DNA of 62,503 nt, the filler included, from Dirinaria sp. TL-2023a (Eukaryota), in assembly GCA_051941275.1 (NCBI GenBank). It is 9 parts of 9 records of this genome, joined end to end, with 100 filler letters (N's around TTAATTAATTAA, not from the genome) between each part and the next. Parts side by side here need not be neighbours in the genome. Positions count along the whole stretch, not along the records: positions 48,720 to 55,565 come from JAVEBF010001406.1; 8 more parts are not named here. One strand, 5' to 3'. The position numbers and the translations under genes are program-made. How positions within the stretch are numbered: the stretch's first letter is position 1; each line of letters begins with the position of its first letter. The notes beneath the pieces were generated by a model, which saw only the letters and a list, made by a program, of their open reading frames with translations, was not told the origin of the DNA and did no database searches. This document shows positions 50,089-50,706 of the stretch, piece by piece.

Positions 50089-50706
50089 ATGACGAAATCT
50101 ATCGCGGTAAGCATCTTCGTCTTCGAACGCCGAGTCTCTACTAAAGCTTACGCGTCGTCACAATAGCATCTCATTCTCATCGGAGGAACCTTGCTCGTCC
50201 GCACAGCCTTCAGCCAACAACTGCCTGTACGTCCATTTAATCTCCCAGCATTCTGAGTCTTTTTCCTAATCATCAAGATGCTATAGTCGAACCTCCCCAC
50301 AAGTGCAAAATGCTGGGACATCTCCTACCCCACAGCAGCCATTGATGGTGCCGGCAACGAAGCCCGCAACTTGCCCATCGGCTCTATTCAGGGTTTCCCG
50401 ATGCATTACCCTCTGTCCGAACTGCACTACCCGGCCTGGGACAACAACGGAGGGCCTTTCCCCGCAAGCGGTGCACCCTTCGCTGCAGGCTGTGATACCA
50501 GTAACATGCAAAAGTTTCCTTTGGTGCCAGCAAATCTGGCTGGAGCAGATGGTGCATGGGATGGGACCAAAAGCCGGAGCAGTGATGTTGGTGGGGGGTA
50601 CACCCAGAGCGATTTCGTGTTTGTAGATGGGAATGGCGATTTTTGCATGATCGCGACAGAGACGCCGTATGGAGTTGCGGGCTGGCTACCTTGCGTGTGG
50701 TCATGA
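50089..50706 (+). CDS. Small secreted RNase T1-fold-like protein lacking catalytic residues, 165 aa
   Basis: Exons 50089-50106, 50167-50226 and 50287-50706, with two phase-0 60-nt introns (GTAAGC...TAG, GTACGT...CTAAT...TAG). Signal peptide MTKSIAHLILIGGTLLVRTAFS, four Cys, and motif order matching RNase T1. Confidence 0.75.

Follow-up and report, generated by a model that had tools for sequence, protein, structure and literature searches.

The window analysed here is a 62,503-nucleotide stretch of DNA from Dirinaria sp. TL-2023a (assembly GCA_051941275.1), made of nine parts of nine records that were joined with filler and need not be neighbours in the genome. In the part that comes from JAVEBF010001406.1 (positions 48,720 to 55,565) lies an intact three-exon gene on the plus strand (50089-50706), whose product we predict to be a secreted protein with the fold of ribonuclease (RNase) T1 and with the catalytic positions of that enzyme replaced. 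In cereal powdery mildews, secreted pseudo-RNases with the T1 fold dominate as effector scaffold, and their functions are mostly unknown. The present gene, in contrast to those of such plant pathogens, comes from the mycobiont of a lichen.

Gene structure and expression

The spliced coding sequence is 498 nt long, stays in frame and ends in a single terminal stop, giving a precursor of 165 amino acids (165 codons) with four Cys, at precursor positions 35, 95, 146 and 162. Exon 1 (50089-50106, +) carries the ATG at 50089 and five further codons (six in total), which would form the n-region of a signal peptide, and exon 2 (50167-50226, +) adds 20 codons with the putative hydrophobic core and likely cleavage region. 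Exon 3 (50287-50706, +) has 139 codons and a TGA; it encodes the entire predicted RNase T1-fold domain with no intron inside, and we refer to its translation as P0001. Both introns (50107-50166 and 50227-50286, +) are 60 nt long and of the GT..AG type (GTAAGC..CAATAG and GTACGT..CTATAG), the second with a CTAAT branch-like site. Hydropathy of the N-terminus peaks at residues 7-17 (Kyte-Doolittle 11-residue mean, maximum 2.15), which is consistent with exons 1-2 encoding an N-terminal secretion signal and with a secreted product.

Transcription was assessed with RNA contigs from four runs (X1-X4) of one ‘lichen metagenome’ sample of one study, placed on positions 49800-51000; gaps in contig cover within this interval and contig depths carry no information on expression level. 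The contigs are only 90-99% alike to the window, so the RNA comes from a close relative and not from the same genome. One 787-nt X1 contig (record 3) aligns at 50010-50105, 50166-50225 and 50286-50895, skipping both introns. An X4 contig (record 8) aligns at 50166-50225 and 50286-50457, and its 19-letter loose end before 50166 can be read as exon 1 with one change. Both RNA skips are exactly 60 nt. Because the contigs lack both introns, spliced RNA is their sole possible origin, and the GT..AG orientation places the transcript on the plus strand. Exon 3 is represented by contigs from all four runs, none with a skip (50286-50895). Unbroken cover by the X1 contig over 50010-50105 gives a 5′ untranslated region (UTR) of at least 50010-50088 (+). 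At the other end the same contig reaches 50895 and an X3 contig (record 7) reaches 50935, with some short insertions or deletions against the window sequence, giving a 3′-UTR of at least 50707-50895 (+).

These observations bear on several claims of an initial annotation of this stretch. The three clean exons and the four-Cys domain that it described can be read directly from the DNA, and its remark that only the tail of the gene shows among the open reading frames (ORFs) agrees with a stop-to-stop listing, in which exon 3 alone appears as a long ORF of the gene. That the gene should be expressed is borne out in the lichen thallus RNA of the close relative, where it is transcribed and spliced. 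The two proposed junctions fared unequally. The first RNA joint is placed at 50105/50166 and, with the cut moved by +1 to give GT..AG, coincides with the proposed 50106/50167. At the second proposed junction, 50226/50287, the 60-nt skip is present, but the cut is placed one base to the left, at 50225/50286 (ends TG..TA); the canonical position would need a G for the T at 50226 in the relative, a silent third position at the last base of exon 2.

Among 18 exon 3 differences listed against the RNA contigs (31 further differences exist besides), 15 fall at third, two at first and one at second codon positions, and this excess at third positions indicates a coding sequence under purifying selection. 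Three minus-strand ORFs that overlie exon 3 (50281-50685, 134 codons; 50384-50752, 122 codons; 50427-50804, 125 codons) were considered and rejected as genes, as homology lies entirely in the plus frame and the introns fix the plus strand. No homologues were found for the antisense frames over exon 3, which we read as a by-product of coding-strand composition.

Upstream of the gene, RNA contigs of X1 and X3 (records 1, 2 and 6) also lie on 49800-50033. Relative to the window, the X1 transcript contig (record 3) has an 87-nt skip with five replaced letters at 49922/50010 (ends TA..AC). The skip takes out a TATAAA-like stretch close to 49990 and is an indel between taxa in the promoter or 5′-UTR, not an intron.

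Distribution of the family

Searches with P0001 recovered a small set of proteins. Among 1.84 billion representative proteins, a collection from which the window's own protein is absent, phmmer returned eight at E <= 0.001; a word-indexed protein search gave four relatives and a seven-sequence profile 14 matches. When a 13-sequence profile was used at E up to 10, 14 of 2079 candidates were family proteins, with P0019 the sole new one; no protein outside the family was recovered by this profile, and no sequence link to an active parental RNase emerged from it. The seven named relatives are all annotated ‘hypothetical protein’, one per taxon, and come from cf. Caloplaca sp. 3, Ikaeria aurantiellina, Teloschistes chrysophthalmus, T. 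flavicans, Xanthomendoza sp. 1, Villophora microphyllina and Wetmoreana brouardii. Taxonomy look-ups place Ikaeria, Villophora, Wetmoreana and Xanthomendoza in the Teloschistaceae, to which Teloschistes and Caloplaca also belong. On the sequences recovered, the family thus appears restricted to Teloschistaceae lichens (Lecanoromycetes), with one copy per named species across the seven named relatives. A tblastn search with all family proteins found no second gene copy in the 62.5-kb window.

The family falls into three subfamilies, across which identity is 50-60%, and 26 columns of the 13-sequence alignment are invariant. Hydrophobic, signal-like N-termini are present in the full-length models P0006, P0012, P0013 and P0014 and in the fragment P0008. 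Of the 12 database sequences in the 13-sequence alignment (A3), six begin at an internal Met of exon 3 and two more are without a signal peptide. Models that start at this internal Met suggest that annotation pipelines often miss the two micro-exons, and secretome screens that rely on such truncated models will miss the family. Several database models look frame-shifted, mis-spliced or read-through: the N-terminal half of P0011 resembles an out-of-frame reading, P0009 and P0014 overrun the usual C-terminus, and P0010 diverges past mid-domain. These oddities may be annotation errors or may reflect decay in those species.

The orthologous locus of another species is represented by four metagenome loci (L001-L004), two alleles that are 99.2% alike, in which the exon 3 equivalent is open and 45-52% identical.

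Predicted fold

Two structure models were made, one of P0001 with AlphaFold2 from a seven-sequence alignment (predicted local distance difference test (pLDDT) 73, predicted template modelling score (pTM) 0.74) and one of the homologue P0004, which is 58% identical to P0001, with AlphaFold from the 13-sequence alignment (pLDDT 77, pTM 0.77). The P0001 model consists of a hairpin, a helix and then four sheet strands. Both predicted models have the T1-type alpha+beta arrangement, that is, an N-terminal hairpin, a single helix and a four- to five-stranded antiparallel sheet, and align with Po1, U2, F1, He1 and T1 at Z 10-11.4 over 99-104 residues.

When the P0001 model was compared with the PDB by Foldseek, all listed rows were T1-family RNases, AVRPM2 or, in last place, restrictocin. 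Realignment of Foldseek's 172 chains with VIA-align placed RNase Po1 at the top (Z 11.4, root mean square deviation 2.5, 99 of 101 residues, 23% identity), along with RNases U2 (Z 10.7), He1 (10.5-10.7), F1 (10.6), Ms (10.5-10.7) and T1 (about 10.3); AVRA22 (8.0), restrictocin (7.9) and AVRPM2 (7.1) scored lower. The P0004 model was searched, without Foldseek, against the full set of 48,161 representative chains. Z >= 5 was reached by seven of them, all with the T1 fold: U2 (11.1), F1 (10.8), AVRA22 (8.2), restrictocin (8.1), BEC1054 (7.6), hirsutellin A (7.6) and AVRA13 (5.8). The first unrelated chain, YafQ, scored Z 4.0.

The seven-sequence profile (A2) gave two matches among 177,635 distinct PDB sequences, both to RNase He1, at E-values (0.13 and 0.61) that are not significant alone, and phmmer of P0001 against PDB sequences gave none. 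The nearest ESM Atlas cluster, a lead only, is named ‘Ribonuclease clavin’ (PF00545; score 0.89, 191 of 256 features shared). Pfam matches to Aft1_HRA (two members, E 0.051) and PilS (one member, E 0.26) were taken as chance. For a prediction, it is well supported that the protein keeps the RNase T1-family fold, which the initial annotation had anticipated from motifs: two models agree, and their closest counterparts are Po1, U2, F1, He1 and T1.

The former catalytic site

Residues are given in exon 3 numbering unless marked T1, Po1 or precursor, and conservation was counted over 13 sequences, of which seven cover the N-terminal positions. The profile alignment with He1 is collinear: the first Cys, a Tyr that follows it by five positions, Y-P-H-Q-Y with F-P-M-x-Y, A-D-R with S-D-F, F-C with F-C, T-H-T with T-E-T, and the last Cys follow in order. 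Six pairings with RNase T1 motifs had been listed in the initial annotation, and five are recovered here (C..Y, YPHQY/FPMRY, ADR../SDF.., THT/TET and the closing Cys); YEWPI with QKFPL, the remaining one, lies outside the alignment.

Po1 His36, Glu54, Arg72 and His87 correspond to T1 His40, Glu58, Arg77 and His92, and Po1 Tyr34 to T1 Tyr38, in the portion of PMC11487538 available to us. By the He1 alignment, T1 Tyr38 is replaced by F37, His40 by M39, Arg77 by F110 and His92 by E125, just as the initial annotation had claimed. Its fifth replacement, Glu58 by Lys, reaches us by a different route: K76 is the probable counterpart, because a Glu-aromatic-Pro motif (Po1 Glu54 and Pro56 in the same portion of PMC11487538; here K76-F77-P78) falls on model strand 75-79. 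Whatever the register, strand 74-80 contains no acidic residue and no His. The canonical T1 set (His40, Glu58, Arg77 and His92, with Tyr38) is therefore not retained, its places being taken by M, K, F, E and F/Y.

These replacements are largely fixed within the family. E125 and W133 occur in 13 of 13 sequences, F110 is F in 12 of 13, and position 76 is K in 12 of 13 and E in one. Position 39 is M, W or Y, and position 37 is F in five and Y in two of the seven covering sequences. No column among the 13 sequences is invariant for His; position 8 comes closest, with His in six of seven (Lys in the window), and H40 of the window, at the T1 Lys41 position, is not conserved. Conservation across the family indicates that the replacements are old and themselves constrained. 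P0018 alone has Glu at 76 and Lys at 109, where the other 12 of 13 have K and D (about 50512-50514 and 50611-50613 in the window); this K76E and D109K pair may be a compensating charge swap, hinting at contact between the two side chains.

The cysteines are similarly well kept (C9 in 7 of 7 covering sequences, C69 in 13 of 13, C120 and C136 each in 12 of 13). C9 and C136 fit the aligned positions of the N-to-C-terminal disulfide (T1 Cys6-Cys103, Po1 Cys9-Cys99), and we infer that they form this disulfide. In addition, C120 aligns with the He1 Cys that equals Po1 Cys82, and C69 lies seven residues before K76, where Po1 Cys48 lies six before Glu54; this alignment and spacing suggest that C69-C120 probably matches the Cys48-Cys82 bridge of Po1. 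The Asp next to the catalytic Arg on its N-terminal side, the buried Asp76 of T1, has its aligned counterpart in D109.

Two insertions set the domain apart. The first, at about residues 44-74, is located at the T1 guanine-binding loop and has high pLDDT in the P0004 model; the second, at about residues 80-96, has low pLDDT in both models. Within the guanine-loop region (Po1 Tyr38-Asn-Asn-Phe-Glu42; T1 42-46), a stretch over which no alignment was printed, Y41 is kept in 13 of 13 sequences and is followed by an invariant P-L and the insertion of about 30 residues. On the predicted sheet face that was formerly catalytic, K76, P78, S108, F110, F112, A123, E125, P127 and W133 are invariant or nearly so, and the same holds for W51, W91, W133 and W138. 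Overall, the P0001 domain is acidic, with 13 D+E versus 5 K+R.

Gene neighbourhood

In the window the gene is flanked by an FrsA-like (peptidase S15-S9-type) esterase (46560-47641, +) and by a mitochondrial branched-chain ketoacid/pyruvate dehydrogenase kinase (BCKDK/PDK-type, with BCDHK_Adom3 and HATPase_c; 51577-52707, +). None of six neighbouring window ORFs matched within the 3-kb flanks of L001-L004, which are short, and no shared gene context was thus found; the kinase is absent from within 3 kb of the orthologue in these loci. Further along, an N run at about 55560-55617 appears as X in the ORF 55264-55617 and was read as an assembly gap or masked stretch; the window holds 704 N in total.

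Discussion

These results are probably best explained by an expressed Teloschistaceae gene for a secreted T1-fold pseudo-RNase that descended from a Po1/He1-type RNase and now acts as an extracellular binding module. The ancestor would most likely have been a secreted RNase of the T1 family, like Po1 and He1 in type and still active. Exons 1-2 of the precursor would supply the secretion signal, and exon 3 a four-Cys domain of about 140 residues with the T1/F1/Po1 alpha+beta fold. In this domain Tyr38, His40, Glu58, Arg77 and His92 would have given way to F/Y, M, K, F and E, and the guanine-binding loop to an insertion of about 30 residues that is predicted to fold with confidence. With both the catalytic set and the guanine loop replaced, the protein would not be expected to cleave RNA by the T1 acid-base mechanism. 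Its two putative disulfides would stabilise the secreted protein, most likely as a stable binding module outside the hypha, and the former catalytic face, now largely aromatic or hydrophobic with few charges, is the probable ligand site. Two of the former phosphate-binding positions now hold Phe and Met, and the loop for base recognition has been rebuilt; we therefore predict that a protein or some other non-nucleotide molecule, from the symbiotic partner or the thallus matrix, is a more likely ligand than RNA. The effector role put forward in the initial annotation stays a hypothesis. The loss of catalysis was likely separate from that in the RNase-like effectors of powdery mildews (RALPHs), because the intron that defines the RALPHs is absent and the structure is closer to active RNases (Z 10-11.4, 23-24% identity) than to RALPHs; confinement of the family to the Teloschistaceae also makes independent derivation plausible.

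Several observations weigh against this interpretation. The best Foldseek E-value is 1.3e-3 (RNase U2B), with none <= 0.001, and the models have low-confidence stretches at residues 82-95 (P0001) and 87-92 (P0004). At the level of sequence, P0001 matched no Pfam family at E up to 10, PF00545 was matched by 0 of 13 members, the 13-sequence profile (A3) had 0 matches among PDB sequences, and the two He1 matches of the A2 profile fall short of significance by themselves. The replacement of Glu58 by Lys comes from motif and strand register, outside the printed He1 alignment, and invariant E125 and R97 with near-invariant K76 leave room for other chemistry. The signal-peptide call derives from hydropathy and homologue N-termini, and the RNA support comes from a relative, in one sample of one study. 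In L001-L004 the fourth codon of the exon 1 equivalent is an in-frame TGA (M-H-S-stop-K) in four of four loci (L001:2777-3420 and the same region of the others). Finally, in the accessible part of a preprint on the Xanthoria parietina mycobiont secretome, a ‘ribonuclease’ structural cluster is the sole one among the putative-effector clusters in which no member is upregulated in the thallus (bioRxiv 10.1101/2024.08.16.608140).

A secreted T1-fold pseudo-RNase could serve the fungus itself, in the wall or extracellular matrix, in a lectin-like role or in microbial competition, and not be an effector directed at the partner. We regard this as possible but clearly the less probable course: the gene is single-copy and fairly conserved, lies between ordinary genes (the esterase and the kinase) and outside any effector cluster marked by expansion or repeats, has four invariant or near-invariant Trp, and the X. 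parietina cluster just mentioned would agree with it, but transcripts are present in lichen thallus RNA. More specific, and doubtful at this stage, is the idea of a Teloschistaceae symbiosis protein, a T1 scaffold independently stripped of catalysis and rebuilt as a recognition module for the Trebouxia photobiont or a thallus-matrix component; the Trp/Phe-rich conserved face, the K/E/R set in the old cleft and the new 30-residue disulfide-tethered loop would then make up the rebuilt module, possibly with lectin-like binding. A decaying relic without function would account for the early TGA in L001-L004, where no canonical frame-keeping intron of plausible length was found to lead from a signal-peptide-like exon 2, in another frame, into exon 3, and for P0009 and P0011, which look frame-shifted or read-through. 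It is nonetheless very improbable for the gene studied here, whose ORF is intact, whose introns are both canonical and which is spliced and expressed; the third-position excess (15 of 18 listed differences) and the invariant residues across the domain in 13 sequences of three subfamilies also speak against it. The species of L001-L004 may have a decayed 5′ end and be able to do without the gene, or may use a different first exon.

Retained enzyme activity at a non-canonical site is another matter. The protein could still be a nuclease or phosphotransferase, with, for example, E125 as base and K76 and R97 stabilising the transition state: E125 and R97 are found in 13 of 13 sequences and K76 in 12 of 13, all on or near the old catalytic face, and the fold is nearer to active RNases than to RALPHs. 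Some RALPHs of dicot powdery mildews keep a catalytically competent RNase domain, according to the available part of a preprint (10.64898/2026.08.13.744637). We nevertheless judge this improbable, as the four T1 catalytic residues and Tyr38 are all replaced, two of them by Phe or Met, which are unable to bind phosphate, no invariant His could act as general acid, and the guanine-binding loop has been replaced. Moreover, five RALPHs that lack these residues had no RNase activity, no 2′,3′-cyclic nucleotide monophosphate synthetase activity and RNA affinity not above controls, in the part of Cao et al. (PMC10410722) that we could consult. Still less probable is a true RALPH, sharing with the powdery mildew effectors one already inactivated ancestor. 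The overall design is common to both (a signal peptide leading into a T1 fold, with an N-C disulfide and the catalytic residues gone), fold matches include AVRA22 (Z 8.0-8.2), BEC1054 (7.6) and AVRPM2 (7.1), and putative RALPHs exist in many fungi according to Seong & Krasileva as cited in the accessible text of a review (PMC12018790). However, active RNases match at Z 10-11.4 with 23-24% identity, versus 4.6-8.2 with 8-20% for RALPHs; the extra Cys of the Po1/He1 type is kept; and the family is known from Teloschistaceae (Lecanoromycetes) only, with one copy per named species. An N-terminal aromatic-x-Cys motif is a feature of CSEP/RALPH effectors, and it is absent here, the first Cys being preceded by A-K in the window and by A-H in six of seven sequences. 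The intron also differs: RALPHs, RNase F1, Zt6, Fg12 and SRE1 all have the beta3-beta4 loop interrupted by a common intron (Cao et al. 2023, PMC10410722, in the part available), whereas both lichen introns lie in the signal-peptide region and the domain has none.

Returning to the favoured reading of an inactivated extracellular binding module, its interest is twofold. Fungi may have recruited the T1 scaffold on one occasion or on several, and here the same outcome is seen in a lichen mutualist. The lineage is small, has a single copy, is restricted to one fungal family and bears marks of a Po1/He1-type active ancestor; it offers a simple, non-redundant case for learning what an inactivated T1 scaffold binds. 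The gene is also a concrete candidate for lichen symbiosis biology. No functionally characterised lichen effector is known to us, and no search aimed at one was made. If the symbiosis recognition module were true, the protein would be among the first lichen effectors to be defined by structure, and the RALPH strategy would have arisen a second time, independently.

Comparison with known systems

The closest counterparts are RNases Po1 and He1, basidiomycete members of the T1 family (PDB 3who, 6ls1, 7w05 and 5gy6). They are the best structural matches (Po1 at 23% identity, He1 at 23-24%), and He1 is the only PDB sequence matched by a profile of the lichen family, the seven-sequence one. The likeness extends to topology, to Cys at the Cys9-Cys99 and Cys48-Cys82 positions and to the Asp before the catalytic Arg. 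In the lichen family, in contrast, Po1 His36, Glu54, Arg72, His87 and Tyr34 are replaced by M, K (by motif and model), F, E and F/Y, the third Po1 disulfide (Cys7-Cys84) is absent, and two insertions make the domain about 35 residues longer. RNases T1, F1, Ms and U2, the guanyl- or purine-specific enzymes of ascomycetes and ustilaginomycetes, are likewise small, secreted and disulfide-bonded, share the fold (Z 10-11.1) and have the N-to-C disulfide position in common; compared with them the lichen family has lost the catalytic tetrad and base-recognition loop, is 13-24% identical and lacks the F1-type beta3-beta4 intron (as described in the available part of PMC10410722). The family does not belong to PF00545 by profile or catalytic residues, yet it very probably descends from the RNase T1 family.

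Ribotoxins (restrictocin, alpha-sarcin and hirsutellin A) are secreted, share the T1-derived fold (Z 7.1-8.1) and give their name, through clavin, to the nearest ESM Atlas cluster. They retain a His/Glu/Arg/His catalytic set and have extended basic loops, whereas the lichen family is without this set and its domain is acidic; plain T1 RNases are the better match to it.

With the RALPHs (BEC1054/CSEP0064, AVRA6/7/10/13/22 and AVRPM2) the lichen protein has its design in common, a secreted T1 fold with lost catalytic residues, an N-C disulfide and a scaffold reused for binding, as the accessible parts of PMC12018790 and PMC10410722 describe for the former; on the lichen side the fold is predicted and the signal peptide is suggested by hydropathy and homologues. 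The two groups have no detectable sequence similarity, and the lichen family has a probable extra disulfide and the two insertions. RALPHs form lineages of tens to hundreds of paralogues in Erysiphales and are expressed in haustoria, whereas in mutualistic Lecanoromycetes we found one protein per named taxon (seven) and a single copy in the window.

Putative RALPH-fold proteins occur in many ascomycetes and basidiomycetes (Seong & Krasileva, as cited in the available part of PMC12018790). In lichen-forming fungi, a literature search on RNase-like effectors found no paper, and a Peltigera pangenome preprint had no relevant mention of them. The nearest precedent is X. parietina, of the same fungal family, in whose mycobiont secretome the ‘ribonuclease’ cluster stands among the putative effectors in the part of the preprint available (bioRxiv 10.1101/2024.08.16.608140); the idea of secreted ribonuclease-fold putative effectors is the same. 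Since P0016 and P0017, from the largest assemblies, start at the internal Met without a signal peptide and L001-L004 have a stop in exon 1, that secretome screen may have missed the family. Secreted proteins of the RNase-like kind have been described before from many fungi; what is new here is a small sequence family restricted to lichens.

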